A DNA stretch of 64,000 nt from an uncultured Candidatus Rokubacteria bacterium (GCA_963826115.1 CAWGVS010000006.1:640001-704000); one strand, 5' to 3'. Positions 32,610-51,771 are shown, counted from the stretch's first letter. Program-made: numbers and translations. The notes: generated by a model not told the origin, from the letters alone.

Positions 32610-34073
32610 TTACCGTTCGAGCCCGTACTCGCGCCAGCGCTGGGCGACGCGCTGGCGGACCTCGTCCGACATGCGGATCTCGTCCGGCCACGGCTGCTCG
32701 ACGCGGTCGAGGGGCGCCCGCTTCTCGGTCGCGTCGATGCCGAGCTTCCCGCCGTAGCGGTGGCGGAGCGCCGCGTGGTCGAGGTCGTCCGTCGGCCCCT
32801 CCACGATCACGAGGTCGCGCGCGGGGTCGATGTTGTTGGTCACGCGCCAGGCGACCTCGGAGAGGTCGTGGACGTTGACGCCCTCGTCGACCACGATCAC
32901 GTTCTTCGCCAGCATGAGGAGGCCGAGGCCCCAGAGCCCGTACATCACCTTGCGGACCTGCCCCGGGTAGCGCTTCTTGACCGAGACGATCACGAGGTTG
33001 TGGAAGACGCCCTCGGCCGGCATGTTCATGTCGACGATCTCCGGCACCATCATCCGGATGAGCGGCAGGAACATCCGCTCCGTCGCCTTGCCGAGCCAGT
33101 AGTCCTCCATCGGCGGCCGTCCGACGACGATCGTCGGGTAGATCGCGTCGCGCCGCCGCGTCACCGCGGTCAGGTGGAAGACGGGGTAGGGGTTCGCGAG
33201 CGAGTAGAAGCCCGTGTGGTCGCCGAACGGCCCCTCGACGCGCGACTCCGCCGGGTCGCAGTAGCCCTCCAGCACGATCTCCGCCTGCGCCGGCACCTCG
33301 AGGTCGATCGTCCGGCACTTCACCATCTCGACGCCCTTGCCCCGGATCCAGCCAGACAGCAGCATCTCGTCGAGCCCCGGCGGGAGCGGCGCCGTCCCGC
33401 TGTACATGGTCGCCGGGTCGGCGCCGAGGGCGATCGCCACCGGGATGCGCTCAAGCCCGGTGCGGCGCGCCTCGCGCTCGTGCTCGGCGCCGCCCTTGTG
33501 GGTCTGCCAGTGGAGGCCGAGCGTCCGCTCGTCGTAGACCTGGATCCGGTAGGTGCCGACGTTCCGGAGCCCGGTGACGGGGTCCCGCGTGATGACGAGC
33601 GGGAAGGTGATGTAGTGGCCCGCGTCCTTCGGCCAGCACCAGAGGATCGGGAGCGACGCGACCGACGGGCGGTCGGTCTCCACGACCTCCTGGCAGGGGC
33701 CGCTCTTCACGCTCCGCGGGCCCGCGCGCGCCACGTCGAGGAGCTCGAGCCCCTTCCTCATCTTGTCGAGGAGCGAGCCCGGCATCTTGAGCTCGAGGAG
33801 GCCCTTGATCTTCTCGCCGAGGTCGTCGAGCCGCTCGACGCCGAGGGCCCACGCCATCCGCTCCTCGGTCCCGAACGCGTTGATGAGGACCGGCATCGCC
33901 GCGCCCTCGACGTGCTCGAAGAGGAGCGCGAGGTTCTGCGCCTTCGGGCCCTTCACCGTGCGGTCCGCGATCTCCGTGATCTCGAGCTCGCGGCTGACGG
34001 GCGCGTCGATGCGCCGGAGCTGGCCCCGGTCCTCGAGGAGCTGGATGAACTCCCGGAGATCCAGAAAGCTCAC
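32610..34073 (-). CDS. ubiD: UbiD-family menaquinone biosynthesis decarboxylase (MqnL type)
   Basis: ELEITEI, RNVGTYR, EIVLEG, EGPFGDHTGFY, KKRYPGQ, GKLGIDAT. Confidence 0.92.
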   Translation of the reverse strand: MSFLDLREFIQLLEDRGQLRRIDAPVSRELEITEIADRTVKGPKAQNLALLFEHVEGAAMPVLINAFGTEERMAWALGVERLDDLGEKIKGLLELKMPGSLLDKMRKGLELLDVARAGPRSVKSGPCQEVVETDRPSVASLPILWCWPKDAGHYITFPLVITRDPVTGLRNVGTYRIQVYDERTLGLHWQTHKGGAEHEREARRTGLERIPVAIALGADPATMYSGTAPLPPGLDEMLLSGWIRGKGVEMVKCRTIDLEVPAQAEIVLEGYCDPAESRVEGPFGDHTGFYSLANPYPVFHLTAVTRRRDAIYPTIVVGRPPMEDYWLGKATERMFLPLIRMMVPEIVDMNMPAEGVFHNLVIVSVKKRYPGQVRKVMYGLWGLGLLMLAKNVIVVDEGVNVHDLSEVAWRVTNNIDPARDLVIVEGPTDDLDHAALRHRYGGKLGIDATEKRAPLDRVEQPWPDEIRMSDEVRQRVAQRWREYGLER

Positions 34074-34325
34074 GGTGTCACCGCTCCGCTGGTGGCGCTG
34101 AGTCCGCGCGCGGGGCGGCGCAGCCCAGTAGGTCGCCGCGGATCGAGCGCCGCAGACGCGAGACGCGCCGGCCGAGACGGACACGGCCCCCTTCGCCATC
34201 GGACCGCGACCGAGCAGGTCGCAGCCTGTGGCGAACGGGTGACGGAGCGAAGCCGCGCCGCGGGCCGGCCCGGAGACAGGACCGGCGGCATGGCAAACGT
34301 GGCGGTCGAAGCGGCGGCAGGCACG

Positions 34326-34817
34326 CTAGTCGTCGTAGATGAAGCGGACGAGGTAGCCCGCGATGATCGGGAACGCGAGGGTCGGGAGGACGCGCGCGAT
34401 GAGGAAGCGCGTCCCCATGAACGGCAGCTCCCACGCGAGGACCCGCTGGAACCCGAAGAGCGACCAGCTCGTCATGTACGCGACCAGCGCCGACAGGGAC
34501 GCCCCGCCCTTGTAGAACACCGCCATGATCGGGAAGCTCACGAGCGGCCCGCCCGGCGTCAGGATGCCCGCCACGAAGCCGGCGAAGATCGCGCGGTGCG
34601 TGTTGCCCCGGCCGAGCCAGTGCTGGATCAGGTCGGGCGAGATCATGACCTGGATCATCCCGGTCAGGACCAGCGCGGCGACCAGCCGGGGCATGATGTC
34701 GAGGAGGAGCTGGGCGCCGGCGCGGAGGCCGACCGCCGGCAGGCTCGGGTCGCGGAGGTACGCGGCGACCGTCACGGCGATCGCGAGGCCGTAGATGATG
34801 AAGTCGAACGTGTGCAT
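34326..34817 (-). CDS. small predicted permease
   Basis: AGILTPGGP, YMTSWSL, WELPFMG. Confidence 0.8.
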   Translation of the reverse strand: MHTFDFIIYGLAIAVTVAAYLRDPSLPAVGLRAGAQLLLDIMPRLVAALVLTGMIQVMISPDLIQHWLGRGNTHRAIFAGFVAGILTPGGPLVSFPIMAVFYKGGASLSALVAYMTSWSLFGFQRVLAWELPFMGTRFLIARVLPTLAFPIIAGYLVRFIYDD

Positions 34818-34916
34818 GCGGAGCCAGCTCCTCCGGGCAGGGGGATCCACGGAGCTCGCGGTGCGGGCGAGGGGGGCGCGCGCCAAAGCGCGGCCAGTAT
34901 AGCCTCGCCGCGACCC

Positions 34917-36104
34917 CTAGATAAAGGAGGAGTCGGGCTCGAGCCCGAGGAGGAAGCGCCCGACCGTCTCGAAGTGCGTCTGGCGGCCCTGGACCTGCTG
35001 GGCCACCGTGTGCGCGTCCCGGAAGCGCCGCTCGAAGGGGTTCGCGTCGAAGATCGCGGTCGCGCCGGCCGTGTGGTAGGCGAAGTCCACGGCCGCCGTC
35101 GCCTCGGTGATCGCGTGGGTCGCCGCCAGCCGGATCCGGACGCGCTGGTCGAGGCCGAGCGTCCCCGCCCCGACGACGTCCCGCCAGACCTCCTCCAGCG
35201 AGCCGAGGAGGAGCGCCCGCGCGGCGCCGACCCGCGCCTCGACCCGGGCGAGCTCCGACTGGACGACGGCGCTCTCGCGGAGCGGGTGGCGGAGGCCACG
35301 CGGCGTCTTCGTCCGGGCGAGCGCGACGAAGGCGTCGAGCGTCGTCCGCGCGTTCCCCAGGGCGACGCCGGCGAAGCCCGAGGCGTAGAGGCTCGTGGTG
35401 GGGAAGCAGTAGAGCGGGCCTCCGTGCCGGCGCTCGGCGGGGTCGTCCCGCGCCGCCGAGCGCTCGCGGGGCACGAAGAGGTCCGCGACCGTGAACGAGT
35501 CGCTGCCGGTCGCCCGGAGGCCGATCACGTGCCAGGTGTCGAGGATCGTCGCGCGGGCCGCCGGGAACAGCATCCAGCGCGTCTCGGCCGCGCCATCCGG
35601 CCGACGGCGCGGCGCCCCGTCGGGCTCGTGGATCGCGCACTGGCCGCCGAGCCAGGTCGCCTGGCGGCAGCCGCTCGCGAAGGTGAACGTGCCCGTCACG
35701 CGGTAGCCGCCGTCGACGGGCACCGCGCGGGCGTCCGGGCTCGGCCCCCAGGCAAGGACGGCCCGCCGGTCGCCGAAGACCTCGCGCGCGACCTCGGGCG
35801 CCACGTAGCCCGAGATCATGGTGCAGCCCGCCGCCTGGCAGAGGCACCAGGCCGTGCTGGCGTCCGCGCGGCTCACCTCCTCGATGACGCGCGCGAAGGC
35901 CGCGGGGTCGAGCTCGGCCCCGTCGAGGGCGCGGGGGAGGAGGAGGCGGTAGAGGCCCGCCTCGTGGAGCGCGGCGACCAGGGGCTCGGGGAGGCGCCGC
36001 TCCCGCTCGCCGTCGGCCGCGGCCGCGGCGATCAGCGGGGCGAGCGCGCGGGCGCGGGCGAGGGGGTCAGCGGGCTCGCCGCGGGCGGGGGCGGCATCGG
36101 CCAT
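34917..36104 (-). CDS. acyl-CoA dehydrogenase-fold flavin-dependent hydroxylase (HsaA-like)
   Basis: DASTAW, FASGC, DTWHVIGLRATGS, ERRFRD. Confidence 0.88.
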   Translation of the reverse strand: MADAAPARGEPADPLARARALAPLIAAAAADGERERRLPEPLVAALHEAGLYRLLLPRALDGAELDPAAFARVIEEVSRADASTAWCLCQAAGCTMISGYVAPEVAREVFGDRRAVLAWGPSPDARAVPVDGGYRVTGTFTFASGCRQATWLGGQCAIHEPDGAPRRRPDGAAETRWMLFPAARATILDTWHVIGLRATGSDSFTVADLFVPRERSAARDDPAERRHGGPLYCFPTTSLYASGFAGVALGNARTTLDAFVALARTKTPRGLRHPLRESAVVQSELARVEARVGAARALLLGSLEEVWRDVVGAGTLGLDQRVRIRLAATHAITEATAAVDFAYHTAGATAIFDANPFERRFRDAHTVAQQVQGRQTHFETVGRFLLGLEPDSSFI

Positions 36105-36203
36105 GGCGGGATGGTACCCCGGCCGGCCGGGGCGCGGGAGGCAGCCGGCCGCGCGCCGGCCGGCCGGCCCGGACCGTGGCCCGCCTCGACGCGCCGCGTT
36201 GCC

Positions 36204-36233
36204 TTGACGCCCGCCGGGGCCGGCCCGTAGAAT
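36204..36233 (+). promoter_or_regulatory. sigma70 promoter of the tRNA pair
   Basis: TTGACG-18-TAGAAT, 10 nt before tRNA-Gln. Confidence 0.7.
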
Positions 36234-36243
36234 GGCCTCGCGC

Positions 36244-36317
36244 TGGGAGATCGTCTAGTGGTAGGACGCGTGGCTCTGGACCACGTAGCGGAGGTTCGAC
36301 TCCTCCTCTCCCAGCCA
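36244..36317 (+). tRNA. tRNA-Gln(CTG)
   Basis: acceptor TGGGAGA/TCTCCCA, anticodon arm CGTGG-CTCTGGA-CCACG, GTTCGAC T-loop, CCA end. Confidence 0.95.
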
Positions 36318-36348
36318 TTTTCTTTGTCTGTTGCGGGTGGTGGGAGCC

Positions 36349-36426
36349 GGCTCCATCGTCTAGCCCGGTCTAGGACACGGCCCTCTCAAGGCTGAAACAC
36401 GGGTTCGAATCCCGTTGGAGCCACCA
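36349..36426 (+). tRNA. tRNA-Glu(CTC)
   Basis: acceptor GGCTCCA/TGGAGCC, anticodon arm CGGCC-CTCTCAA-GGCTG, GTTCGAAT, CCA end. Confidence 0.95.
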
Positions 36427-37036
36427 CCGTTCTGACGCGGGTTTCCGCAGCATCAGCCCTTCCGCTCAGACTCTTGTTGCCACGGCTTGTTGCCATTCCG
36501 GCAGCTTCAACCACTCCAGCGAGGTTTGGATTCCCGTCCCGAAGCCTGGCGCGATATTAGGAGAGCGTGAGGCAAAGGACACCGGACAAACGGACAGTTC
36601 CGGCTGCCAGGCCCCAGGCGGTGGGTCAATGGCGACGCAGCCGAGTGACCGGCGGATGAGGTTGAGGCAGCAGAACTGGCCAATTGCCCGAGCACGTCCG
36701 GCCGCACTCAGAACGCTCCGCTCCTTCACCCGTGCGGCAGTTCGAGCCGATGAAAGACCAGGGTAGAAGTCGCAGGGTGCAATCGGATCCGATGCATCAA
36801 CACAACCGACTTGCAGCCGGACGGCGCCGAGCAGGGTGATTAGAAGGTGGCCCTGGATCATCGCAATAGCAGGAAACAGTCGCCACGGGACTCCCGTATG
36901 TCTTCTGTTGAGGACACAGTCAGTTATGAACCGAGCCGGTACCCCGGGGCGACCGGCTTCGGCTTCTATCCCTACCTCCGCCTCGTACACAGCGTTTCCG
37001 ATGTAGCGTGATCGGGGCCTGACCCTGATCACGACG

Positions 37037-37465
37037 GTGGCGGGGAACGGGATCGGCAGGACGGACCCTAGCTACCAGGATGAAGAAGTCGAGATCGCAC
37101 GTGTGTCGCTCCAGTCCACGACTGGGGACGTCATCAGCATTCGCGCGCGTCGAGAAGGAGGCGTCATTCGATATCGCGTTGTGGACGAGTACGGCACCAA
37201 GATAGTCTGCTCGCCGACGGAGAGCACGGAACCGCTATCACTCAGAGAATTGATCGGCCTGATGGACACAGCCCAGTATGATAACTCCCCGGAGTTCGTT
37301 GGACTCACGAACGCCTTTCGCGACTACGACGCTGGGTCTGATCCGGAGGAACTCCTGGCGTTCGTATCGGTATCGTCGGAGTTCTATTCAGAGCTTGAAT
37401 CCTACTACGATGACGACGGGCAACGTTGGCTCGAGGAGAGGCGGAGGTCCGAGACAAGCGGGTGA
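37037..37465 (+). CDS. acidic hypothetical protein, possibly N-terminally truncated
   Basis: protein-like EVEIARVSLQSTTGDVISIRAR..YRVVDEY; GTGA-coupled to the next gene; no clear SD. Confidence 0.6.
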   Translation: MAGNGIGRTDPSYQDEEVEIARVSLQSTTGDVISIRARREGGVIRYRVVDEYGTKIVCSPTESTEPLSLRELIGLMDTAQYDNSPEFVGLTNAFRDYDAGSDPEELLAFVSVSSEFYSELESYYDDDGQRWLEERRRSETSG

Positions 37466-37995
37466 GTGAGCCGGATCTGGTTCCCGCGCAGGAGCCCACG
37501 AAGCGCCCCCAACGCAAGGCCTTGAGTAAGCGCCTCCAGGTCGAGGTCTACCGACGCGACCGCTCGCTGTGCAGGTGGTGCGGGCGGTCCGTGATATTCG
37601 CTCCGGCCATGAAGTACCTCGAGCGGTACGCGCGGAGCCGCGGCTATACGGGTCCGCTCGCCTGGTTGTCGTTTGCTTGGCGTCGGGATGCATCACCGTT
37701 GCTGGATCACCTCGGGGCGGTCATCGATCATGTGAAGGCGTTTTCGACAGGAGGCGCGCACGAGGCGAGCAACTTCGCGACGGCCTGCGCAAAATGCAGC
37801 ATGCGAAAGAGTGCGGGCGCCGCGAAGGAGCCGCTCAGGAAGGTCAAAGCGAAATATGGAGAGCCTGAGCACTGGGACGGGTTCTCGGTGCTGTTCGTTT
37901 TGATGGTACGAGGCGATAAGAGCGGCGTCACACGGTCAGAAATGGAGTGGTACGAAGCGTTCAGTGGTGAGCGTGATGTACCTAGAACTAAGTGA
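37462..37995 (+). CDS. HNH endonuclease family protein
   Basis: RDRSLCRWCG, IDHV..GG...SNFATACAKCS; stop codon lies inside repeat site 1. Confidence 0.8.
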   Translation: MSEPDLVPAQEPTKRPQRKALSKRLQVEVYRRDRSLCRWCGRSVIFAPAMKYLERYARSRGYTGPLAWLSFAWRRDASPLLDHLGAVIDHVKAFSTGGAHEASNFATACAKCSMRKSAGAAKEPLRKVKAKYGEPEHWDGFSVLFVLMVRGDKSGVTRSEMEWYEAFSGERDVPRTK

Positions 37996-38004
37996 TCCCG
38001 GAAG
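37978..38004 (+). repeat. 27-bp cassette-boundary site 1
   Basis: GTACCTAGAAC-TAAGT-GATCCCGGAAG. Confidence 0.85.
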
Positions 38005-38046
38005 TAGGCATTCGCCGCCGGTGGGGCGGTAGCTGGAGAGAATGGC

Positions 38047-38856
38047 ATGAGAAACAATCAGACGCTCGACCTTAGCGGCTCACCGGCCGAGATCTATGAA
38101 CGGTACCTTGTCCCGCGCTTCTTCCTGCCGTGGGCACGGGATCTCATTGAGGCGGTTGCCCCGAAACCGGGTGAGCACGCCCTGGATGTCGCCTGCGGCA
38201 CCGGCGCCGTGACCCGGTTGGTTGCAGAGCGTGTCGCGCCTGGAGGCAGCGTTGTCGGCCTCGATGTCAACGCTGGCATGATTGCAGTGGCGCGATTGTC
38301 GGTGGCCAGTCCTAAGGTGGAGTGGCGAGAGGCGAACGTCCTCGAGCTCCCCTTTGGCGACAGCGCCTTCGACATCGTCGTCTGTCAGCAAGGACTCCAA
38401 TTCTTCCCGGATCGACCACTAGCGCTTTGGCAGATGAGACGGGTCCTAGGGCCACGCGGGCGTTTGGGCCTATCTTGTTGGCGTACCTCTGCCGAAAGTC
38501 CGGCCTATGCGGCCATCGAGCGAGCCCTTGCGCGCCGCCTCGGAGAGGAAAAGAGCAGCTTGCCGCCATTTGCGCTAAGCGACCTTCGGCACCTGGAGAA
38601 GCTAGTCGAGGGCGCTGGCTTTCGGGAAATCAAGGTGCAGAGCAAGACGAAGATGGTCGAGTGGCCGTCAGTGAATGTCTTCGTCCGGGCGACTGCGGCC
38701 TCCGCTCCGACGATGCTGGGTTCTCTCGCTGAGCAGGGTGACGCGATGCTGTCCGAGATTGTGGCCGAAGTGGAGGCGGATACTGAACGGTTCCGCAGCG
38801 CAGATGGTGAAATCAGGTTTCCGATGGCCAGTAATCTGCTCACTGCGCGCGCCTAA
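38047..38856 (+). CDS. class I SAM-dependent methyltransferase
   Basis: YERYLVP, LDVACGTG, FDIVVCQQGLQFFPD. Confidence 0.92.
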   Translation: MRNNQTLDLSGSPAEIYERYLVPRFFLPWARDLIEAVAPKPGEHALDVACGTGAVTRLVAERVAPGGSVVGLDVNAGMIAVARLSVASPKVEWREANVLELPFGDSAFDIVVCQQGLQFFPDRPLALWQMRRVLGPRGRLGLSCWRTSAESPAYAAIERALARRLGEEKSSLPPFALSDLRHLEKLVEGAGFREIKVQSKTKMVEWPSVNVFVRATAASAPTMLGSLAEQGDAMLSEIVAEVEADTERFRSADGEIRFPMASNLLTARA

Positions 38857-38886
38857 TCTGGCAGTTAGGCAACGTGTGTCGTAAAT

Positions 38887-38913
38887 GTTCCTAGAACCAA
38901 GTGATCTAAGGAG
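38887..38913 (+). repeat. 27-bp cassette-boundary site 2
   Basis: GTTCCTAGAAC-CAAGT-GATCTAAGGAG. Confidence 0.85.
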
Positions 38914-38959
38914 TGGAGCCGTGGGCCGCGCGTTGGCGTGGCCCGTAGGGAGGATTCCG

Positions 38960-39385
38960 ATGCTCCGTGGATTGAGTTCGATAGTCTGCCTCGTGGTTTT
39001 GGGCCTCCTCGCTCTGGCTGGTACCCGCGTGCTCGCTCAGTCAAGCACGGCTGGCTCGCCGGTCGGAGCGGACCAGATCGAGGCCATTCTGACCCAGCAA
39101 CCATCTTGGACGGTCTATTGGTCAAGCGCTGGAGCGGCACCGAGACCGCCCGCATCGGCAGCGGCGGATACGATCCAATTCCGTCGAGATGGCAACCAGT
39201 TCATGGGACACCTGAAAACCGTTTTCGGGCAAGAGTGTGACTTCGCGGTGACGGTCAAGGAGAATGGTTTCATCTATCCCGGCTGCGCACGATATGACAA
39301 AGAACTGATCTATGATCCGTCGGATAGCGAATATCCGTTCAAGGGGACGGCCAGATCATATGGGTTCTGGCTTCGGCGACAATGA
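38960..39385 (+). CDS. secreted hypothetical protein
   Basis: GGGAGG SD, signal peptide ending VLA-Q, two Cys. Confidence 0.75.
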   Translation: MLRGLSSIVCLVVLGLLALAGTRVLAQSSTAGSPVGADQIEAILTQQPSWTVYWSSAGAAPRPPASAAADTIQFRRDGNQFMGHLKTVFGQECDFAVTVKENGFIYPGCARYDKELIYDPSDSEYPFKGTARSYGFWLRRQ

Positions 39386-39417
39386 ATGGGGCGACGAGGC
39401 TGTCTTGTTGTCGCAAC

Positions 39418-39444
39418 ATTCCTAGAATCAAGTGATCCAAGGAT
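39418..39444 (+). repeat. 27-bp cassette-boundary site 3
   Basis: ATTCCTAGAAT-CAAGT-GATCCAAGGAT. Confidence 0.85.
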
Positions 39445-39447
39445 GGC

Positions 39448-39681
39448 ATGGCTGGACAGGTAACTCGGCGCCAGATGGAAACGTGGCTACTGGGCAATGG
39501 GTTCCGCCGTCTCAAGGGAGGAATGAGCGGACATGTTCAGTACGAGAGGCAGGGTGTGAAGATAACCTTGCCCGGGCATGGGCCGCAGGACCTGACAAAG
39601 AAGCATGTGGCGCTCATTATTCGGGCGCTTAATGGGGCAGGATTTGACCGGGAGCAGGTGCGCCGCGAACTCGGTGGATGA
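39448..39681 (+). CDS. HicA-like toxin (no adjacent HicB)
   Basis: 77 aa; L..NGF...G..SGH..Y....KITLPGH..DL pattern of the HicA fold. Confidence 0.7.
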   Translation: MAGQVTRRQMETWLLGNGFRRLKGGMSGHVQYERQGVKITLPGHGPQDLTKKHVALIIRALNGAGFDREQVRRELGG

Positions 39682-39686
39682 GTAAT

Positions 39687-39713
39687 GTTCTTAGAAGCAA
39701 GTGATCCAGGAAT
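39687..39713 (+). repeat. 27-bp cassette-boundary site 4
   Basis: GTTCTTAGAAG-CAAGT-GATCCAGGAAT. Confidence 0.85.
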
Positions 39714-39732
39714 CGTTTTGAAGGAGTAGGCC

Positions 39733-39969
39733 ATGGCACGCGTGCGTTGTGTGGCGTGCGCGCTGGAAACTCGCCGGTACGTTAACCATGTGCTGCCGGT
39801 AGGGTACCCTGACAGCGGGGTAATCTGTGGCGTGCCTTCGTGTCGGCTGCCCGGTCTCATCTGGTTGGAAGCAAAGGAGGCCCGAGCCTATGATCGGGCG
39901 AGCGGATCTTTCTGCTGCGCTCGAAGACGATCCAGGTCAGGGCTCAATGATGCGCTGGCAAAGTTCTGA
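39733..39969 (+). CDS. small Cys-rich hypothetical protein (possible missing G near 39897; alternative stop 39950)
   Basis: AAGGAG SD; CVAC..PVGYP..CGVPSC..PGLIWL; another frame gives a more protein-like GERIFLLRSKTIQVRAQ tail. Confidence 0.55.
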   Translation: MARVRCVACALETRRYVNHVLPVGYPDSGVICGVPSCRLPGLIWLEAKEARAYDRASGSFCCARRRSRSGLNDALAKF

Positions 39970-40067
39970 AGGCGTGCTGGCGGTCAGATAGGCTCTCGAC
40001 AGAAGATGCCATAGGCGTCAGAGGCGACGCCTATTTGCTTCGCACACAGGACTGCAGGGAGGCGGAT

Positions 40068-40421
40068 GTGGCCAAGTTCGAGACGGTTCCGATCGGAGAA
40101 CTCAAGCACCGGCTTCCGGCGAAGCTCCTGCCGCTGGTGGAGGAGTATCGGTAGAAGATGGAGAAACTTACGGCGGAGCAAGGCGGGCGCCTCACCCTCG
40201 AGAAAGGCGATGACGCGAAGGAGCTCCGGCGCGCCCTGAAGGCGGCCGCTGCAGCTGTGAACCGGCGCGTGCGGTTCCCCTTCCGGGGCGAGGAGGGGTC
40301 GCTGAGCTTTTATCTGGAGGGCCAGCGAGGACGACGAAGAGGGCGGCGGCCGAAGGGGGCGGGCGGTGCTGGCGAGGCGCCCAAGCGGAAGCGTGGACGG
40401 CCGAAGAAGGCGACCAGCTAG
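40068..40421 (+). pseudogene. basic AT-hook-tailed DNA-binding protein with in-frame TAG
   Basis: GGGAGG SD + GTG 40068, TAG 40152-40154, in frame with ORF ending KRKRGRPKK. Confidence 0.65.
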
Positions 40422-40547
40422 AGGCTACGAGCTCCATGTATATATGTAAGAGTCCGTCGTGTGGGACGGGACGGGCCCTTGGACACCTCCACCGGCTTGA
40501 GGGTAGGTTCGCGCGACGGCTAACCGGTCAGTTGAGGAGGGCCACCC

Positions 40548-40712
40548 ATGCCCCGCTATGAATTCCTCTGCGAGAAATGCCAGAAGACCTTCGAGCAGAC
40601 CATGACCATCTCGGAACACGAGAAGGGGAAGGTCCGGTGCCCGACGTGCAAGAGCACGAGAGTCGTGCCGCAGCTCAGCGGCTTCATGGGGCAGACGAAG
40701 AAGAAGAGCTGA
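40548..40712 (+). CDS. FmdB-family zinc-ribbon protein (absent from ORF track)
   Basis: MPRYEFLCEKCQKTFE...CPTCKS; GAGGAGG SD. Confidence 0.88.
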   Translation: MPRYEFLCEKCQKTFEQTMTISEHEKGKVRCPTCKSTRVVPQLSGFMGQTKKKS

Positions 40713-40727
40713 CAGTTGTGCCAGGAA

Positions 40728-40754
40728 GTCCCTAAAAGCGGGCGATCCAGGAAG
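40728..40754 (+). repeat. 27-bp cassette-boundary site 5
   Basis: GTCCCTAAAAG-CGGGC-GATCCAGGAAG. Confidence 0.7.
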
Positions 40755-40799
40755 TGAAGGAGGCGTCCTGGGTGTGAGCCGAGAACTACCCTTCGGAGA

Positions 40800-40828
40800 T
40801 TGACGTCACCCCACTCCGGGCGTAGCAT
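40800..40828 (+). promoter_or_regulatory. sigma70-like promoter inside a cassette
   Basis: TTGACG-17-TAGCAT upstream of the ABC SBP. Confidence 0.5.
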
Positions 40829-40848
40829 CCCGCCACCCGGAGGTGACC

Positions 40849-41838
40849 ATGAAGCGACCGGGCCGCGTGTTCCTCCTTTCGCTGACGCTGGCCGTCGCCC
40901 TCCTCGCCGCGTCGCTCGCCGCCGAGGCACAGCTGGCGGGGGGAATCCCTCGAGTTGGCTTGCTCTCATTCGCCGACGGGTTGCCTCCGCGCATTGAGGC
41001 TGCACTCTTGGACGGGCTCCGCGAGGATGGGTGGGTCGAGGGAAAGAGCATCACGGTCGAGCGCCGATACGCCGGTGGCCGGGCCGACCGGCTTCCCGAG
41101 CTGGCGACGGAACTCGTGGGCTTGAAGGTGGACGTCATCATCGCCTCTGGCGCGTCCGCCGTACGCGCCGCCAAGATCGCCACGAGTACCATTCCAATCG
41201 TCTTCGCCGGGGCCGCTGATCCCGTAGGATTCGGGTTGGTGGTGAGCCTGGCACATCCCGGCGGCAATGTGACGGGCGTGTCCGATTCGACCGGCCGTGA
41301 GATCGAAGGGAAGCGCCTCCAGCTGCTGAAGGAGGCCGTGCCGGCGGCCACTCGCGTGGGGGTCGTGCTGGACTCCACCAGCCGGACCGATCCGGCCCCG
41401 ATGCGCGAGGCCGCGCGGGCGTTAGGATTGGCGTTGCTGGTCTCGCCGGAAGCGTCCACACCCGAGGAGTTCCGGGACGTCTTCGCGTGGTTCTCCCGGG
41501 AGCGGACTGGCGTGTTGTATGCGCCTGAGACACCGGTGAATGCTCGGCATCGCAGTTTGATCGTCAAGCTGGCGGGCCAGCATCGCCTTCCAGCAATGTA
41601 CGCATCCCGGGAATTCGTCGAGGCGGGCGGCCTGATGGCATACGGCCCGAGCCATGCCAAGGTGTTTCGACAGGCCGCCGGCTACGTGACGAGGATCTTA
41701 AGGGGCGCTCGGCCGAGCGACCTGCCGGTCGAGCAGCCGACTGAGTTCGAGCTGGTGGTGAATGCAAGGACGGCGAAGGCCCTGGGGCTGGTCCTGCCCC
41801 CGGCAATCCTCACTCGGGCCGACCACGTGATCCAGTGA
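40849..41838 (+). CDS. ABC transporter substrate-binding protein (ABC_sub_bind type)
   Basis: TIPIVF..ADPV..GLVVSLAHPGGNVTG, GGLMAYGP, DLPVEQPTEFELVVN. Confidence 0.92.
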   Translation: MKRPGRVFLLSLTLAVALLAASLAAEAQLAGGIPRVGLLSFADGLPPRIEAALLDGLREDGWVEGKSITVERRYAGGRADRLPELATELVGLKVDVIIASGASAVRAAKIATSTIPIVFAGAADPVGFGLVVSLAHPGGNVTGVSDSTGREIEGKRLQLLKEAVPAATRVGVVLDSTSRTDPAPMREAARALGLALLVSPEASTPEEFRDVFAWFSRERTGVLYAPETPVNARHRSLIVKLAGQHRLPAMYASREFVEAGGLMAYGPSHAKVFRQAAGYVTRILRGARPSDLPVEQPTEFELVVNARTAKALGLVLPPAILTRADHVIQ

Positions 41839-41859
41839 GAGGAAGGGAGGGCGACACGC

Positions 41860-42360
41860 ATGCCATTCGGGAGATTCCTTGTCATCGTCTTCTTCACCGG
41901 CCTCTGCCTCCTCGTCCCACTCGTCAGCATGGCCCAAGAGGCGGTCTTCATCATTCGGCATACGGAGCAGGTGGTCGATGGAGAGGATCCACCGCTCACG
42001 GACATCGGCCATCAGCGCGCTGCACGGCTGCCCAGCGTCCTCAAAGACGCAGGCATCCGCGTCATTTACACCAGCGAGTCTCTGCGGACGATTCAGACCG
42101 CGCAACCACTGGCGAAGGTGTTGGCGATCGACAGCCGGATCGTGCCGCGACGTGAGATCGAGGCACTGGTGAGGCGGCTTGCCGTCGAGCACACCCAGGA
42201 TCGTGTGCTCATCGTCAGCCATTCGCAGACCATCCCGGTGTTGCTCAAAGCGCTGGGACACACCGCAGAGGTTCCGATCGGCCGGGACGAGTATGATAGT
42301 GTGTTTCTGGTCTTTCCGCGACAGGGAATGCCGCCGGTGGTCGTCCGATTTCACTTCTAG
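41860..42360 (+). CDS. secreted histidine phosphatase family protein
   Basis: IIRHTE, RTIQTA, VSHSQT; signal peptide. Confidence 0.85.
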   Translation: MPFGRFLVIVFFTGLCLLVPLVSMAQEAVFIIRHTEQVVDGEDPPLTDIGHQRAARLPSVLKDAGIRVIYTSESLRTIQTAQPLAKVLAIDSRIVPRREIEALVRRLAVEHTQDRVLIVSHSQTIPVLLKALGHTAEVPIGRDEYDSVFLVFPRQGMPPVVVRFHF

Positions 42361-42594
42361 CGGGTCCGAAGACAAAACCGGCCGTGACGATTCCGCCCTC
42401 GATGCGGGCGCGAGCGGAATCAATGATCCGGGTAGATCACGTCATCGGCTGGCCGCAGTCACGGGAGCAGACCACGACCCAGGCTTCCCGCAGCATCAAG
42501 ATCAAGCAGGCCACCGCTACGCCGGACAACCAAGAAGGCACTCCTTCACTAAACTCATGACCCCGCTGTCTCATTCTTGTTGACAGGTTCCGCG

Positions 42595-42621
42595 GTGCCT
42601 AGAAGAGAGCGATCCAGGGAC
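42595..42621 (+). repeat. 27-bp cassette-boundary site 6
   Basis: GTGCCTAGAAG-AGAGC-GATCCAGGGAC. Confidence 0.75.
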
Positions 42622-42776
42622 AAAGCTGCTTCCCGGGAAACACGCTGGCGCTGTTCGAGCTGAAGCGGCGGGGGCAATGAGCCCTTCGCCGAGATGTCCG
42701 CAAGAGCTATCTTCGGGCATCGTCATGGTTGGTGTGAGGTCATTTACCGAAGCGGCTGTGGTGGAAGGAGCCGATC

Positions 42777-43607
42777 ATGAGCACCACGACCACGACGTTC
42801 GTCGCGACGGACCCGAGTGCCTACGAGCAGTTCATGGGGCGATGGAGCCAGCGGCTCGCGCCGTCATTCGTTGGGTTCGTCGGCGTTCAAACAGGTGAGG
42901 AGGTTCTTGATGTCGGGTGCGGTACGGGAAACCTGACCCTTGCTTTGGCTCAGGTGCAAGTGAAGTCGGCGGTTGGCATCGACCCATCGAGCCCCTACAT
43001 CGATTTCGCGCGGAGCCGTACCTCCGATCCGATGGTCCGCTTCGACGTAGGTGATGGGACCGCGCTCCCATACGGGAGGGGGGCCTTCGATCGGGGCCTC
43101 TCAATGCTGGTGCTCGACGTCGTCCCAGACCCTGCTCCGATGGTGGCCGAGATGTGCCGGGTCACGCACCCGGGCGGCACTGTAGCCGGGCTTGTCAACG
43201 ACTTCCGGTGCGGGCACCCAGTCTTCACCATGTTGTGGGACACCGCGGCCGTGCTAGAGCCGGGCTTCGCCGACCTCCGTGACCATCTAACGTCGAAGCG
43301 GATCGGGTGGCCCGGGGGCTTAGCCGAGCTGTGGCACGCAGCGGGACTGACTGACATCCACGAGGGACGGCTGACTATGCCGTTCGACTTCGGTTCGTTC
43401 GCCGATTATTGGTCGACGTTCACGACGGGACAGGGCAAGACCGGGGGGCATCTCATGAGCCTGCCGGAGCCGAAGCGGCGAGAGATCGAACAGTGCGTGC
43501 GGGCGGCGTACCTCTGCGGGCAACCCGACGGCCCACGGGCGTTCCTGATGACGTTCTGGGTGGTCCGAGGAGTTGTCCGGGAGAACCCTTCCCAAATGAG
43601 CGGGTAA
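42777..43607 (+). CDS. class I SAM-dependent methyltransferase
   Basis: YEQFMGRWS, LDVGCGTG; AAGGAG SD. Confidence 0.92.
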   Translation: MSTTTTTFVATDPSAYEQFMGRWSQRLAPSFVGFVGVQTGEEVLDVGCGTGNLTLALAQVQVKSAVGIDPSSPYIDFARSRTSDPMVRFDVGDGTALPYGRGAFDRGLSMLVLDVVPDPAPMVAEMCRVTHPGGTVAGLVNDFRCGHPVFTMLWDTAAVLEPGFADLRDHLTSKRIGWPGGLAELWHAAGLTDIHEGRLTMPFDFGSFADYWSTFTTGQGKTGGHLMSLPEPKRREIEQCVRAAYLCGQPDGPRAFLMTFWVVRGVVRENPSQMSG

Positions 43608-43695
43608 AGGAGCTTGTGACTTCCTCGGGTGTCGAGCAACGCTCATGCGTTGAGGGAGATGAGAACACAACCCTCCAGGGGGTGCCTTCCCAGGA

Positions 43696-43721
43696 GTTCC
43701 TGGATCAGACCGATCCAGAAC
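43696..43721. repeat. cassette-boundary site 7 (most symmetric copy, one base shorter)
   Basis: GTTCCTGGATC-AGACC-GATCCAGAAC. Confidence 0.65.
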
Positions 43722-43907
43722 GTCGTCGAATCTAACCGCGGTGCCCACACGAAGGCGATTCGGGCAATCCCGGACGCTCTATTCAGCTCGAGTACGGATA
43801 GAAGTGCATCGTAGATATCCACGGGCGAGATTGCAATGAGACACGCCAAGGGCTTAGGGTCCCCAAGGTCGGCTCGACGGAGTGAGTGGCCGTAGGGAAG
43901 GCGACCT

Positions 43908-44862
43908 CTAGGCGTGAAGTCTCACGAGATTGTCCGCACTCGACCGCGACAGGCGGCTGATGGGCGGACGGCCGTGCAGACCGGCATGGTCCCGTTCCAC
44001 ATTGTAGTAGTGCAGCCAGTGGGGCAAGGCCCCGAGGCGCTCGGCCGAGGTCCGGTACGGCCGGATGTAGGCCCACTGGCGCAGCAGGGTCTGGATGAAG
44101 CGCTCGGCCTTGCCGTTCGTCCGGGGCGTGTAGGGGCGTGTCCGGAGATGCCGGATCCGGGCGCTGTGGCAGCACTGGGCGAAGACGTGCGACAGATACC
44201 CCGCGCCGTTATCCGTCAGGAGGCGGCGGACCCGGATGCCCAGGCGGCGGTACCAGGCCAGCGCCCGCCAGAGAAACGCGGTCACGGTCACGCCCTGCTC
44301 ATCGGGCAAGACCTCGACATAGGCGAGCCGCGTCGCGTCATCGACGGCCACGTGGACGTACTCCCAGCCGATGCCGCGGACCCGGGCGCGCCGGTCCCCG
44401 GTGATGCGGTGCCCGATGCGGCCGATCCGCCCGAGTTTCTTGATGTCCAGGTGCACCAGGCCGCCGGGCTCGGTGTACTCGTAGCGCACGACCGGCACGC
44501 GGGGCTCAAGGGCCCGCAGCCGGGCCAGCCGCAGCCGCGTGAGGTACCGGGCGACCGTGGCGGGGCTGAGCTGCAAGGCGCGGGCGATCTGAGCGCCGGT
44601 CCAGCGCTGGCGCCGCAGGCGTTCGATCCACCGCGACGAGCTCGGGGGCGACGGCGGCCGGGGCCCGGCGCGGCCGACAGGAGCGATCCTGCAAGCCGGC
44701 CCGGCCGGCGAGGCGGTATCGCTGGACCCACTTGCGGACGGTGCGGTCGCTGATCCCCAGGGCATCGGCCACGTCGCGAATCGACTCGGCCCCGTGCAGG
44801 ACTCGCTGGACGAGACGCTCTCGACTGCGCGGGGTGGTCCGGGCATGCTGGTGGATGTTCAT
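43908..44862 (-). CDS. IS481-family DDE transposase, +1 frameshift near 44630
   Basis: MNIHQHARTT, HLDIKKLGRI, AVDDATR, LTDNG, PRTNGKAERFIQT. Confidence 0.9.
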
Positions 44863-44950
44863 CCGAGCCTCCTGGCTGTGAAGGGTGGCGGCGTCGCAAC
44901 CACCAGCCTTCCAGACGAGGCTCGGGTGAACAACCTCCTGAGAGTTCACA
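43913..44950 (-). mobile_element. IS481-family insertion sequence (1038 bp)
   Basis: 23-bp imperfect terminal inverted repeats (CGTGAAGTCTCACGAGATTGTCC vs TGTGAACTCTCAGGAGGTTGTTC); TCTAGG target duplication at 43907-43912 and 44951-44956. Confidence 0.92.
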
Positions 44951-45075
44951 TCTAGGCGTGTCCAGAAGCCAGTCCACGTGGGCTTGTGCGCCGATAGGCC
45001 AGCGTCGGCGAGATGCCGAACGCTGACCTCCGGGGGAACCTCGATGATCCGATGATTGACCCGCGCCCCTGACTG

Positions 45076-45966
45076 TCAGGGCGGGCGCACGGCAGCCAGG
45101 GCGATCCTCCAGCAGGCGAGCACGAGCGCGCCGGCGGCGAGGGCCAGGAGCCACTGACTCGACCGGCCGAGTGGTTGGCGCTGTGCCAGTGCCGGGCCAA
45201 TGCCCAGGAGGCCTCCAACGAGGAGGCCAAAGACGTGGGCGAGTACATCTGACCCCGGCGCGGTCCCGAGCATACCGAGCAGCGCGAGGCTGGCGGCCAT
45301 TACCACCCAGCCCTTGTGCACCGACGCCCGGTCCCGCCCGCGCGCTACGTACTGGCGAGCGGCCAGAATGCCGAGGGCGCCGAAGATGGCGGTCGAGGCG
45401 CCGACTGAGACGGACGACGGCCCATGCGCGAGCGCCGTCAGCGCGTTTCCCCCCGCCCCGGCCAGTAGCACGAGCCATGTGCCCACGCCTGGCCCGAGCC
45501 ACCAGGCCACCGCGGTGACGAACACCAGGCAGGCGAGGGCGTTGCTGAGCACGTGGGCGAGGTCGGCATGGAGTGTCAGGGCGGTCACTGTGCGCCATAC
45601 CTCACCGGACAGAATCGGCTGGGCAGCAGCACTGCCTCGGTCGAACCAGAGGTTGGATCCACGTGGGCCGGTGACCGCAAAGAACCCAACCAGCAGCACG
45701 GCGATCACCCCCCCGATCCAGGTGGTGCCGTAGGGGGGCGGGGAGGGATCACTCGGCGCCTCGTCGCGGTTCTCCCGGTCATACTCGGCCAGCGCGCTGC
45801 TCGCCCGTTCAGCATCACCCGCCGCGACCATCACCATCCAGCCGGCGTCAGTCGGCTCCAGGCGGTGAGCAATCCCATTCGACGCCAACACGACCGCGCA
45901 CTCCTCCGCCCGCTTCGCACTCGGGGTCACACACACGGCGGCCTCACTCGGTTTATCGGTCGTCAT
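45076..45966 (-). CDS. rhomboid family intramembrane serine protease
   Basis: WRTVTALTLH..HVLSN, GASTA, AHVFG. Confidence 0.88.
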   Translation of the reverse strand: MTTDKPSEAAVCVTPSAKRAEECAVVLASNGIAHRLEPTDAGWMVMVAAGDAERASSALAEYDRENRDEAPSDPSPPPYGTTWIGGVIAVLLVGFFAVTGPRGSNLWFDRGSAAAQPILSGEVWRTVTALTLHADLAHVLSNALACLVFVTAVAWWLGPGVGTWLVLLAGAGGNALTALAHGPSSVSVGASTAIFGALGILAARQYVARGRDRASVHKGWVVMAASLALLGMLGTAPGSDVLAHVFGLLVGGLLGIGPALAQRQPLGRSSQWLLALAAGALVLACWRIALAAVRPP

Positions 45967-46746
45967 TGATGCAGCCTGAGCTGGACGATGATGGGGTGGT
46001 TCGGCACGATCGGCCATCGCTTAGCCCTGATCCGAAAGTAACTCACGCAGTTAGCACATGGCCACGCGCCCGGAGAGGGTCTGGGTCGCAGAGATCTCGG
46101 TCGGTCTGCCCGGGAGCCACAGCGACACCGCGCCAAAACCATAGCGCGGCGCCGTCTGAGCGGACAAGGGCGTCGGGAGATCGAAGGGATGCCCCGAACC
46201 TGCCCTGCAGGGGCCGGGGAACGGAGGGGGACCGCGGCACCTGGGCGTGCTCGAGTGCCGGTCAGGCGGCCGAGACCGGTCGCCCCGGCGGCGGGTCGGC
46301 GGCAAAATCGAGCGCGTGAGGAGCCGGCGTACGGTGTGACTCGACATTTACGAGCGGTGCTGGCCGGCGGCCCCACCAGCAGCGTTGTGGCCCTATGTCA
46401 GCCGTCCGAGCGACCGGGGGCCTGTGGAGCCAGCGCTGCGCGGCTCGGACGACTGGCCTCTTCGGCAGCCTGAATCTCGTCTGCGGATCCCCGGGCTACC
46501 TCCTCATCGACCCGCCGGCCTGGCGCGGTTCTGGCGCCCGAAACTGGCCGTTTGTCCGGCGTCTGGACAAAGGCTGTCCTCGTTGTTACGCCTGTCGGGT
46601 CACGGCAGAACCCCGCGGAAGTTCAGCGTACAAAGGCGTTCGAATCCCGTTGGAGCCACCACCGGCGTGATGGCGAGAGTCCCGGTCGAAGAGCCGATTC
46701 GAACCCGCGCACCACGTTGACGCGCTAGGGGCGGCGCTGCCCAGGC

Positions 46747-46773
46747 ATCCCTAATACCTTGTCTTCCAGGTAC
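46747..46773. repeat. degenerate copy of the 27-bp site
   Basis: ATCCCTAATAC-CTTGT-CTTCCAGGTAC (18/27 to consensus), 8 nt past the helicase stop codon. Confidence 0.5.
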
Positions 46774-46781
46774 ATCCGCTA

Positions 46782-50971: not shown

Positions 50972-51004
50972 ACTGTGGACGCTAGCACACGACGGCCCGT
51001 CAGC

Positions 51005-51707: not shown

Positions 51708-51771
51708 GGCTGGTTCCTCCCGTGTTGGTTAGAGTCGGAGTGTGTCGATCACCGGCGCTGGTCGCTCAGGC

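Follow-up and report, generated by a model that had tools for sequence, protein, structure and literature searches.

A 27-bp imperfect palindrome recurs between unrelated genes of an uncultured Candidatus Rokubacteria bacterium, in seven plus-strand copies plus one decayed copy that together span positions 37978-43767 of the window (the whole stretch of 64,000 nucleotides analysed here). With modest confidence, we read this region as an orphan array analogous to an integron, in which six cassettes are bounded by dif-like, double-stranded core-type sites and the cognate enzyme is absent. An integron-analogous array with a tyrosine-recombinase-type site had been predicted from this DNA, and comparative tests (distribution of the sites, breaks in homology and the presence of a recombinase near such sites) support that prediction.

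Sites and cargo of the array

All seven sites were located on the plus strand at their predicted positions, and a repeat finder recovered the spacings of 909, 531, 269, 1041 and 1867 bp; the sixth spacing (43696 minus 42595) is 1101 bp. The features of the region are as follows.

36349-36426, plus strand: tRNA-Glu at the left edge of a low-GC island; its last 27 nt recur downstream
37426-37995, plus strand: HNH endonuclease gene upstream of site 1 (PF01844, 24.2 bits)
37978-38004, plus strand: site 1, spacer class nCAAGTG, with the HNH stop codon within
38047-38856, plus strand: cassette 1, class I SAM methyltransferase (Pfam)
38887-38913, plus strand: site 2, nCAAGTG, the same sequence as L013:9998; start of homology with genome G013 and soil contig X4
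38960-39385, plus strand: cassette 2, protein of 141 aa whose N-terminus is hydrophobic, without a family match
39418-39444, plus strand: site 3, nCAAGTG; the HicA start lies 3 nt after it
39448-39681, plus strand: cassette 3, HicA-like toxin without adjoining HicB (weak Pfam match)
39687-39713, plus strand: site 4, nCAAGTG; the 99.6% block in common with G013 stops inside it, at position 22
39733-40712, plus strand: cassette 4, three small genes (ORFs 39733-39969 and 40158-40421; Zn_ribbon_8 gene 40548-40712)
40728-40754, plus strand: site 5, spacer class GCGGGCG
40843-42360, plus strand: cassette 5, ABC_sub_bind solute-binding protein and His_Phos_1 phosphatase (Pfam)
42595-42621, plus strand: site 6, spacer class GAGAGCG
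42777-43607, plus strand: cassette 6, second class I methyltransferase (Pfam)
43696-43722, plus strand: site 7, spacer class CAGACCG, near-symmetric, profile E = 0.009
about 43741-43767 (limits approximate), plus strand: decayed eighth copy, its 5-nt left flank equal to that of site 6
43908-44846, minus strand: rve-type transposase (IS) of host-like GC, just past the last site (Pfam)

With up to three mismatches, the consensus matched four times in the window and never in 100 shuffles, and a looser core pattern gave nine matches, six of them sites, against a mean expectation of 0.96. A weight matrix made from sites 1-6 scored these at 35.5-47.1 bits, the next best place in 6.24 Mb reaching 18.1, and a sequence-only profile (built from 87 sites in many genomes) had seven hits at E ≤ 0.05 in this genome, each of them in the array. 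A motif spread genome-wide as a transcription-factor box had been one foreseen objection; in both matrix and profile scans of the 6.24-Mb genome, it occurs only at the array. Site 7 has a chance-like 16.9 bits with the matrix from sites 1-6 and E = 0.009 with the 87-site profile; a 20-nt core is common to it and L017:5849, and its spacer class is recurrent.

The arms are inverted, about 10-11 bp long and of one consensus (GTYCCTRGAW and its mirror ATCYAGGRAC); they stay conserved around a spacer of 5-7 bp that falls into a few discrete, recurrent classes. To judge from arms, spacer and a switch of homology within the site (see below), the layout appears to be that of a tyrosine-recombinase core site of the loxP, FRT or dif type, in which inverted protein-binding arms of about 10-13 bp flank a 6-8-bp spacer. 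Across 87 unique sites, no covariation of mirrored arm positions rose above shuffles in the 12 testable pairs (lowest p = 0.16), a 13th pair being invariant, and no flank conservation was found between unrelated sites, the conserved element being the 27 bp alone. Because the two arms vary independently, the site fits a double-stranded, two-arm element whose half-sites would be bound by protein on duplex DNA, not an attC hairpin. Polarity along the array, which had been suggested from the divergence of copies 5-7, was not sustained, because these copies carry other, recurrent spacer classes (GCGGGCG, GAGAGCG and CAGACCG) found unchanged in other genomes; their divergence is not decay along the array.

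Pfam bears out the predicted gene calls, with HNH, two class I methyltransferases, Zn_ribbon_8, ABC_sub_bind and His_Phos_1 in the array region, the HicA match being weak (21.8 bits, below the cut-off of 27). The HNH stop codon (37993-37995) does lie inside site 1, and the HicA ORF (39448-39681) occupies the unit 39418-39687. In tight units, the next gene begins 3-8 nt past a site and the previous gene stops 6 nt ahead of it. No site was found upstream of the HNH gene. The spacings of 269-1867 bp, filled with genes, are not CRISPR-like, as had been noted, and a CRISPR array, with its regular period of tens of bases and non-coding spacers, was rejected.

The array lies inside a low-GC island adjoining tRNA-Glu, the last 27 nt of which are repeated at 46638-46664 (27/27) and 51262-51288 (93%). 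An Rfam search of positions 34000-52000 returned only two tRNAs and three weak hits below gathering scores, with the sites unmatched, and no T-run follows the sites.

Distribution and homology breaks in relatives

A strict pattern matched in 9 of 41 related genomes and a reversed control in none. Order-wide, the profile gave at least one match in 30 of 151 genomes and at least two in 17, with 13 of 20 genomes positive in one family (f1) and 14 of 127 in another (f2). Clustering at the boundaries of variable genes, as predicted, was observed in many related Candidatus Rokubacteria genomes, where most neighbouring sites face the same way (50 adjacent pairs, with 5 opposed). Units in these clusters have a median length of 1056 bp and carry a single called gene in 26 of 50 cases; 79 of 94 unit genes are co-directed with the sites, and 20 of 80 nearest downstream genes lie on the opposite strand. 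The median distance is 48.5 nt from a site to the next called start and 57 nt from the preceding stop to a site. No conserved regulator gene accompanies the clusters. These arrays are integron-like in that their cassettes are co-oriented, mostly single-gene and variable in content between relatives. An IS110-family transposase abuts one site.

Cargo recurs in other contexts, with homology breaking inside the sites, again as predicted. In a comparison of homologous flanks (3916 pairs, 89 sites), homology was confined to the left in 9 pairs and to the right in 6, extended to both sides in 1 and was ambiguous in 14, counts that overstate the number of events because site pairs are not independent. 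Site positions 10-12 are identical in all nine left-only pairs, identity falling to 0.56 at position 13, and positions 12-17 are identical in all six right-only pairs, which places the switch at about position 12/13. Site windows make up 0.62% of the sequence and hold 32 of 433 distinct homology ends, a 12-fold enrichment over the 2.7 expected.

Individual cases illustrate this reshuffling of flanks. Window positions 38884-39708 are 99.6% identical to G013 (L013:9995-10821) along 827 bp, the flanks being unrelated; from this two-cassette block, we propose that at least two cassettes were recently exchanged with another species of the genus. The G013 counterpart of site 4 is 28 bp long and differs in its right arm. 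Two loci from different genera (L011 and L018) have in common a unit, 97.3% identical, that begins at position 8 of its first site and stops at position 22 of its second, and soil contig X4 equals 38887-39193 from its base 391 onwards with 0 differences, its first 390 nt being unlike the window. At site 2, homology with two other contexts begins at the left site edge, not at position 12, which is compatible with the model only if the likeness of the left arms stems from their match to the consensus. Cassette 1 has 77% DNA identity to a cassette of G014 (L017), starting at the same site position; the cassette 3 unit (269-271 bp) is also found in G019, G010 and G013, and the cassette 4 unit is absent from G013 between the same neighbours. 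The Zn-ribbon gene of cassette 4 is also found elsewhere without an adjoining site.

The mechanism that we favour starts from a dedicated Xer-like tyrosine recombinase that, as a dimer, would bind both arms of a site. A pair of directly oriented sites would recombine, releasing the intervening DNA as a circle with one hybrid site, and the circle could then recombine with any site and thereby be inserted. Crossover is predicted at the left spacer edge, near position 12/13, so that a cassette would comprise the right part of a site, one or more genes and the left 12 nt of the site that follows. We infer catalysis by the Xer-like enzyme, circular intermediates and exact cleavage points, and so recombination itself, from comparison of sequences. 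Neither excision circles nor empty sites nor junction reads were seen; two joints were found, neither at sites.

Candidate recombinase and alternative readings

The original prediction expected a recombinase near such sites elsewhere. A Xer-like tyrosine recombinase (L071:7470-8687) matches PF00589 at 111 bits and, among NCBIfam models, XerA at 167.5, XerC at 146 and XerD at 133.8 bits; because all three scores fall below the equivalog cut-offs, the enzyme is classed from its sequence as Xer-like, not XerC, XerD or XerA proper. Among 251 genomes, all four loci with homologues of at least 79% identity have sites within about 2 kb, and 1 of 14 loci with 35-38% homologues has a single weak site hit. 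The G019 array contains a fragment of the gene. In metagenomes, 10 of 70 loci have a site-like palindrome ahead of the recombinase gene at a fixed offset (at least the 99th percentile of 1554 control windows), and homologues of as little as 48% identity retain it; homologues of 46-52% identity occur in contigs of 31-58% GC. The candidate is rare: 3 of 251 genomes encode a close homologue, as do only 2 of the 17 that have at least two sites, and the gene is truncated in several places. Most arrays, this one included, are without a known enzyme. A recombinase acting in trans or lost, as predicted, agrees with the lack of a close homologue in the present genome (G000); its 1.24-Mb array contig (C6) has no PF00589 match, and five full-length tyrosine recombinases are encoded elsewhere in the genome. 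The link between enzyme and sites is one of association only, and the recombinase could itself be cargo or a site-targeting element.

That last point opens a rival account, which we consider unlikely: the sites do bound cassettes, and the enzyme is a housekeeping Xer (as for the pdif modules of Acinetobacter and Xer-exploiting elements) or another integrase, the rare Xer-like gene being cargo or a site-targeting element. Most array genomes do lack a dedicated recombinase, the five full-length enzymes of G000 are available, the size and layout of the sites are dif-like, and the IS110-family transposase suggests that elements may target sites. However, the two arms are alike in type, as suits a homodimer and not a XerC/XerD pair, and the fixed-offset palindrome before the recombinase gene is conserved to 48% identity. 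Moreover, cumulative GC skew rises monotonically along C6 and turns at 930-950 kb of contig C5; no site-like or arm-like place occurs near that turn, where dif is expected, and no further one was found in G000, whose own dif was not identified. An IMEX at the chromosomal dif was rejected on these positions, the array being on C6. A pdif or dif module with distinct XerC and XerD arms was likewise rejected, both arms being of one consensus, as was the alternating orientation of pdif modules (50 same-orientation adjacent pairs, 5 opposite).

The remaining accounts dispense with the proposed cassette mechanism or assign it to known integrons. An improbable one takes the palindrome for an operator or promoter (a dimeric transcription-factor site with a TAGAAT-like -10 box) carried along with horizontally acquired genes, the breakpoints being a by-product. 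A quasi-palindrome with a variable centre is a typical operator form, sites stand upstream of co-oriented genes at the median distance given above, several contain TAGAAT or TAGAAC, and the copy before the recombinase gene could mean autoregulation; yet the preceding stop is as close as the next start, the motif is confined in G000 to one acquired island, its clusters come without a conserved regulator gene, and neither the enrichment of homology ends in sites nor the sharp switch at 12/13, where the left arm goes with the gene before the site and the right part with the gene after it, is explained by an operator. More improbable still is an ordinary integron remnant, a CALIN (a cluster of attC sites without integrase) served by the integron integrases of the order. 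IntI-like genes do occur in two relatives as paired adjacent matches to the integron-integrase model (G019:C24, 235.9 and 200.4 bits; G022:C87, 230.5 and 210 bits), the stretch upstream of the G022 gene has the core AACAAGTGAT in common with the sites, and the single-gene layout with diverse cargo is integron-like. Against this, the 27-bp site is about half of the shortest known attC and lacks both the inverse-core and core motifs (RYYYAAC and GTTRRRY), the absence of covariation points away from a hairpin under selection, and a longer attC structure is not expected because genes crowd the sites in some units, leaving no room. The G019 and G022 intI loci lack such sites, the G019 contig ending at the gene, and G000 has no IntI (best TIGR02249 match 77.6 bits, cut-off 265), although that absence alone does not exclude a CALIN, which is integrase-less by definition. 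The sites were therefore rejected as attC (hairpins of 55-140 nt with R''/R' and L''/L' boxes), given a 27-bp element without covariation in 12 testable pairs and with unconserved flanks. We give least credence to a structural or RNA-level repeat (REP-like, a MITE end, or a hairpin for termination or processing) that takes no part in recombination. The imperfect palindromes, intergenic and right after stop codons, would suit it, but base-pair covariation, an Rfam match and a following T-run are all absent, the copies are single and do not form inverted pairs flanking an element, and there are only seven or eight of them at a single locus of 6.24 Mb. REP/BIME repeats, with tens to hundreds of genome-spread copies, were rejected on the seven profile matches in one 5.8-kb stretch.

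Relation to known systems

Beyond this array, we tentatively put forward a broader reading: Rokubacteria, and perhaps other soil phyla with contigs encoding the 46-52%-identical recombinases, may possess a second gene-capture system that evolved independently of integrons and uses a Xer-like enzyme, short duplex dif-like sites, single-point crossover and single-gene cassettes, with orphan arrays at several loci per genome inside tRNA-targeted islands. No published description of such a system was found in the literature. If the reading is true, cassette platforms arose repeatedly from chromosome-dimer resolvases, and an integron-like lifestyle needs neither folded attC sites nor the IntI-specific domain.

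As in integrons, cassettes are mostly single-gene, co-oriented and promoter-poor, accessory cargo is very diverse and includes a lone toxin gene, cassette order and content vary among close relatives, and many arrays have no nearby integrase. The single sharp crossover point beside a left arm often ending in AAC is a further likeness; PMC4792948 gives AAC as the canonical cleavage point of integrons. By contrast, the site here is a 27-bp duplex-type palindrome, not a folded attC of 55-140 nt, and is split in the middle, its two parts going to adjoining cassettes, whereas nearly all of an attC belongs to a single cassette. The enzyme is plain Xer-like (about 281-332 aa; 75.9 bits on the integron-integrase model, cut-off 265), and its gene stands inside the array in the same orientation, with a site ahead of it, rather than being divergent from an attI.

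Modules bounded by dif sites have alternating inverted sites with distinct XerC and XerD arms and depend on host XerC and XerD. The present sites are directly repeated (50 adjacent pairs, with 5 opposed), have two like arms and an associated dedicated recombinase, and are chromosomal, in Rokubacteria, resembling no other place in G000. In Acinetobacter plasmids, pdif sites of about 28 bp are dif-like, bound accessory modules that include toxin-antitoxin genes and are shuffled between replicons, and are targeted by IS; to that extent, the short dif-like sites, the discrete accessory modules and the IS at sites are alike.

Single-recombinase Xer systems resolve dimers at one terminus site per chromosome, whereas here many sites lie off the skew switch and bound cargo, and the recombinase is missing from most genomes. 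In common with XerS/difSL, XerH/difH, archaeal XerA/dif and IMEX are a Xer-type enzyme (best NCBIfam model XerA) and sites of dif-like size and symmetry. The gene for the recombinase is directly preceded by a site here, as it is in xerS/difSL.

Sites, spacers and distribution in the order

All seven positions at which the original prediction had placed 27-bp imperfect palindromes were borne out, as was the gene content given for the units between them. Every one of these copies lies on the + strand, and a decayed eighth copy follows the last:

37978, +: site 1, followed by cassette 1 (methyltransferase)
38887, +: site 2, followed by cassette 2 (secreted protein)
39418, +: site 3, followed by cassette 3 (HicA-like)
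39687, +: site 4, followed by cassette 4 (three small genes)
40728, +: site 5, followed by cassette 5 (solute-binding protein and phosphatase)
42595, +: site 6, followed by cassette 6 (methyltransferase)
43696, +: site 7
~43741-43767: decayed eighth copy, after site 7

Sites 1–6 form a single repeat-finder family (spacings of 909, 531, 269, 1041 and 1867 bp), and their consensus, with up to three mismatches, had four matches in the window versus none in 100 shuffles. Across the whole host genome (G000; 6.24 Mb, 72% GC, 12 contigs), in which the window spans C6:640001-704000, a weight matrix built from sites 1–6 scored these sites at 35.5–47.1 bits and the next-best position at 18.1 bits, a result that means only absence of further copies because the matrix was trained on the same six sites that it scores. 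A sequence-only profile from 87 sites in many genomes gave seven matches in G000 (E ≤ 0.05), all within the array. Site 7, which reached only 16.9 bits by the first matrix and at first appeared chance-like, has a 20-nt core in common with a site in the related genome G014 and is a member of a recurrent spacer class. Beyond the window, a local dip in GC contains two weak matches to the arms alone, 2.6 kb from each other (G000:C6:1199790 and 1202403), which may be a decayed second cluster; an arm-only match at C6:946159, in host-like GC, is probably due to chance. The gene of cassette 3 matches HicA weakly (21.8 bits; cut-off 27). This toxin-like gene (39448-39681) makes up a cassette by itself, with no recognisable HicB adjoining, and this same unit also stands alone in three other genomes (loci L011, L012 and L013).

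Among the 87 unique sites, C4, A9, G17, A18, T19, C20 and G24 are each at least 90% conserved, and the spacer falls into a few recurring classes (nCAAGTG, GCGGGCG, GAGAGCG, CAGACCG, CTTACTG and CACGGTG). The copies include perfect 13-1-13 palindromes and length variants, namely one copy of 28 bp and others of 29 bp. None of the 12 testable mirrored arm pairs exceeded column shuffles in Watson-Crick combinations (lowest p = 0.16); pair 9–19 is invariant, and pair 12–16 lies below the shuffle expectation. Selection therefore acts on the half-sites independently, the pattern of a protein dimer bound to duplex DNA, and leaves no stem under constraint; this disfavours both an attC-like fold and an RNA hairpin.

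A strict pattern derived from sites 1–4 matched G000 and 8 of its 40 relatives, 9 of 41 genomes in all, and its reversed control matched none. In a scan with one genome per species, multi-copy matches were found in Candidatus Rokubacteria/Methylomirabilota MAGs, the remainder being single matches in unrelated, mostly low-GC genomes. Sites in the relatives form small clusters in stretches of 59–71% GC: the window and 12 loci hold 50 instances (46 unique) of at least 16 bits, versus one in shuffles, and 38 further sites lie in 18 additional loci, with several loci per genome. The profile matched at least once (E ≤ 0.05) in 30 of 151 genomes of the order, about seven being expected by chance, and at least twice in 17, two of which carry 19 matches each; by family, positive genomes number 13 of 20 (f1), 14 of 127 (f2), 1 of 1 (f3) and 1 of 1 (f4). 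A permissive arms-only pattern, matching 115 of 251 genomes of the phylum, was not used for prevalence. Outside the order it mostly picks up GC-rich strings (CCTGGA...GATCCGGG, for example), several of which are conserved within genes, and the 30 loci fetched with it (L041–L070) contain almost no sites.

In three genomes of the genus, arrays with different cassettes occupy the same chromosomal neighbourhood (L012, L013 and L019), which has the same five core genes, with tRNA-Pro, tRNA-Arg and tmRNA nearby. Within L013, an IS110-family transposase gene (7225-8722; DEDD_Tnp_IS110 and Transposase_20) starts 38 nt past a site; members of the IS110 family are known to target palindromic repeats and attC sites.

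Exchange of flanks at the sites

Flanks of 50 nt on each side were compared for all pairs among 89 sites of at least 20 bits from 30 sources, with L016 left out as a near-copy of L015. The left flank alone was shared in 9 pairs, the right alone in 6 and both in 1; 14 pairs were ambiguous and 3886 shared neither. Left-only pairs are identical at site positions 10–12 in 9 of 9 cases, identity falling to 0.56 at position 13; right-only pairs are identical at positions 12–17 in 6 of 6, with positions 1–11 close to background. The pattern is clearest in a unit common to loci of two different genera (L011 and L018; 97.3% over 565 bp): at its downstream site the initial 12 nt are identical and the remainder unrelated, and at its upstream site identity runs unbroken from position 11 onward, after left arms that differ.

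The secreted-protein and HicA cassettes of the window (38884-39708) recur at 99.6% identity over 827 bp in L013:9995-10821 between unrelated flanks, the right end of the homology falling inside site 4; this relative (G013) is without cassette 4 between its HicA and solute-binding-protein units. A contig from an unrelated soil run (X4) matches 38887-39193 with no differences from its base 391, its first 390 nt being unlike the window. Against a strict 12/13 rule, the whole of site 2 is common to both other contexts, so that the rule requires the left arms to be alike through their match to the consensus. Among inter-locus homologies of at least 100 nt and 80% identity, 32 of 433 distinct ends, which are non-independent events, fall in site windows, versus 2.7 expected from the 0.62% of sequence that these windows occupy. 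The reshuffling of cargo at the sites, proposed as a check of the original prediction, is seen both in the exchange of flanks and in the enrichment of homology ends. Short metagenome contigs from four soil/plant runs, informative for the covered stretches only, have two joints inside the solute-binding-protein gene family, off the sites (41115 to 42782 and 41637 to 41718), and these gave no evidence of excision; L015 and L016 differ by indels, none of them bounded by sites.

Of the neighbouring sites separated by 60–5000 bp, 50 pairs share an orientation and 5 are opposed. The median unit is 1056 bp, 26 of 50 units have a single called gene, and of the 94 genes in units 79 are co-oriented with the sites; these counts come from a simple ORF caller, whose predictions run into 23 of the 89 sites by over 12 nt. 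The 94 unit proteins have matches to 78 Pfam families, the commonest cargo being solute-binding proteins (6), class I methyltransferases (6) and Zn_ribbon_8 (4).

A Xer-like candidate recombinase and alternative readings

No gene is conserved beside every cluster. When every tyrosine recombinase in five site-rich genomes was considered, two proved to adjoin sites, both in G008: one is a 405-aa open frame (L071:7470-8687) whose likely true start would give ~332 aa, relatives being mostly 281–332 aa, and the other is a deleted copy. The protein of the first has a Phage_integrase domain (111 bits) and scores best against XerA, XerC and XerD (167.5, 146 and 133.8 bits, all under the cut-offs); on the integron-integrase model it reaches 75.9 bits versus a cut-off of 265. 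A survey of 251 genomes of the phylum gave homologues of at least 79% identity at four places in three genomes, with sites within ~2 kb at all four; at 35–38% identity, 1 of 14 loci has a single 15.6-bit site match. A recombinase fragment also lies inside the G019 array. G000 has no homologue closer than 34%, and its array is an orphan copy.

Soil metagenomes yielded 462 confirmed stretches and at least 793 related proteins at E ≤ 1e-20, automatically named XerD; plasmid and phage collections gave no match at that threshold. The closest metagenome relatives have a same-orientation site before the gene and site-bearing cassettes upstream or downstream. Of 70 testable loci, 10 have a two-arm match (at or above the 99th percentile of 1554 control windows) whose offset ahead of the conserved core is fixed (−79 or −66 nt); they include 48%-identical homologues in contigs of 39–44% GC; by eye, several other loci have different-armed palindromes at the same offset. 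A search of the longer metagenome loci for 11-mers repeated at least three times found no consistent arrays around distant homologues. Contigs of other, lower-GC organisms with recombinases of 46–50% identity (L144:8717-9785, L137, L163 and L173) have repeated palindromes of their own, one of them present three times just upstream of the L144 gene; these may be sites of sister systems.

Distribution, flank exchange and recombinase association together support the original reading of a cassette array on recombinase-type sites, and we consider it likely that recombination takes place at the sites and that they delimit mobile cassettes. If so, the Xer-like family is probably, with somewhat less assurance, their enzyme; the link as read from sequence is an association and not proof, and catalysis of the exchange by this family is presumptive. 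A serine recombinase is unlikely because the site has an odd length, position 13 differs between partners with the same left flank, and the associated enzyme is a tyrosine recombinase. Dependence on the host Xer system may also apply, since most arrays are without a dedicated enzyme; against it, G000 has no other sequence similar to the site or to its arms. Short dif-like patterns had no match in G000.

The arrays resemble integrons in their shuffled single-gene cassettes, the many arrays without an enzyme and the single crossover point, and their type of site is akin to that of Acinetobacter dif modules, but the defining features of both fail here. The array is unlikely to be what remains of a true integron, since its site is too short and the folding of that site is not under selection, core motifs are lacking and G000 encodes no IntI. 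True integron-integrase genes occur in two relatives, both disrupted (G019:C24:97846-98792, loci L023/L024, by a frameshift, the contig ending 81 nt beyond the gene; G022:C87:2201-3089, L025, by an in-frame TAA, on a 3.3-kb contig), and the little DNA adjoining them is without such arrays. A stretch upstream of the G022 gene has the core AACAAGTGAT in common with the 27-bp sites. An operator or promoter role may coexist with recombination, but would leave the sharp exchange of flanks unaccounted for; when the flanks were inspected by eye for a promoter (−35/−10), no conserved −35 was apparent. A REP-like or RNA element fails on copy number and lack of covariation, and Rfam returned two tRNAs and three sub-threshold matches, nothing more.

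Integrons are the textbook bacterial device for stockpiling and shuffling single genes, and folded attC sites together with a specialised integrase are regarded as necessary to them. If the present reading is true, the cassette strategy is more general than the integron, being achievable by a plain Xer-type enzyme on minimal duplex sites of dif-like form, and abundant uncultured soil bacteria hold a mobile gene pool invisible to integron finders. It would also offer a natural intermediate for how integrons may derive from Xer recombinases, an origin that is among the questions raised in PMC4792948. A full-text search of the literature for integrons of Rokubacteria/Methylomirabilota, Xer-type cassette arrays and dif modules found no description of such a system. 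Should the enzyme prove active, a 27-bp site with interchangeable spacer classes could serve as a compact recombination tool.

Genomic setting at tRNA-Glu

The array lies within a stretch of 55–65% GC (~36.4–51 kb of the window) in a genome of 72% GC, away from the GC-skew turning point (C5:930-950 kb). This stretch starts directly after tRNA-Gln and tRNA-Glu. The last 27 nt of tRNA-Glu (36403-36429) are repeated exactly 10.2 kb downstream (46638-46664), and a third copy (51262-51288; 93%) lies another 4.6 kb on. From these repeats, which fit the low-GC stretch, the region reads as two islands in tandem, inserted at tRNA-Glu:

36430-46664: first island, containing the array, an IS and a rhomboid gene
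46782-50633, −: 1283-aa protein filling the second island, with HIT, PLD-like nuclease, ResIII/helicase and DUF3427 domains

The 1283-aa protein looks like a defence-type nuclease-helicase. No integrase lies in either island, and the whole of contig C6 (1.24 Mb) is free of tyrosine recombinases. The rhomboid protease gene (45078-45994) matches L018:7394-8310 at 94% over 917 bp; in both G000 and G014 it stands at the downstream end of the array, convergent with the cassettes, which differ between the two arrays.
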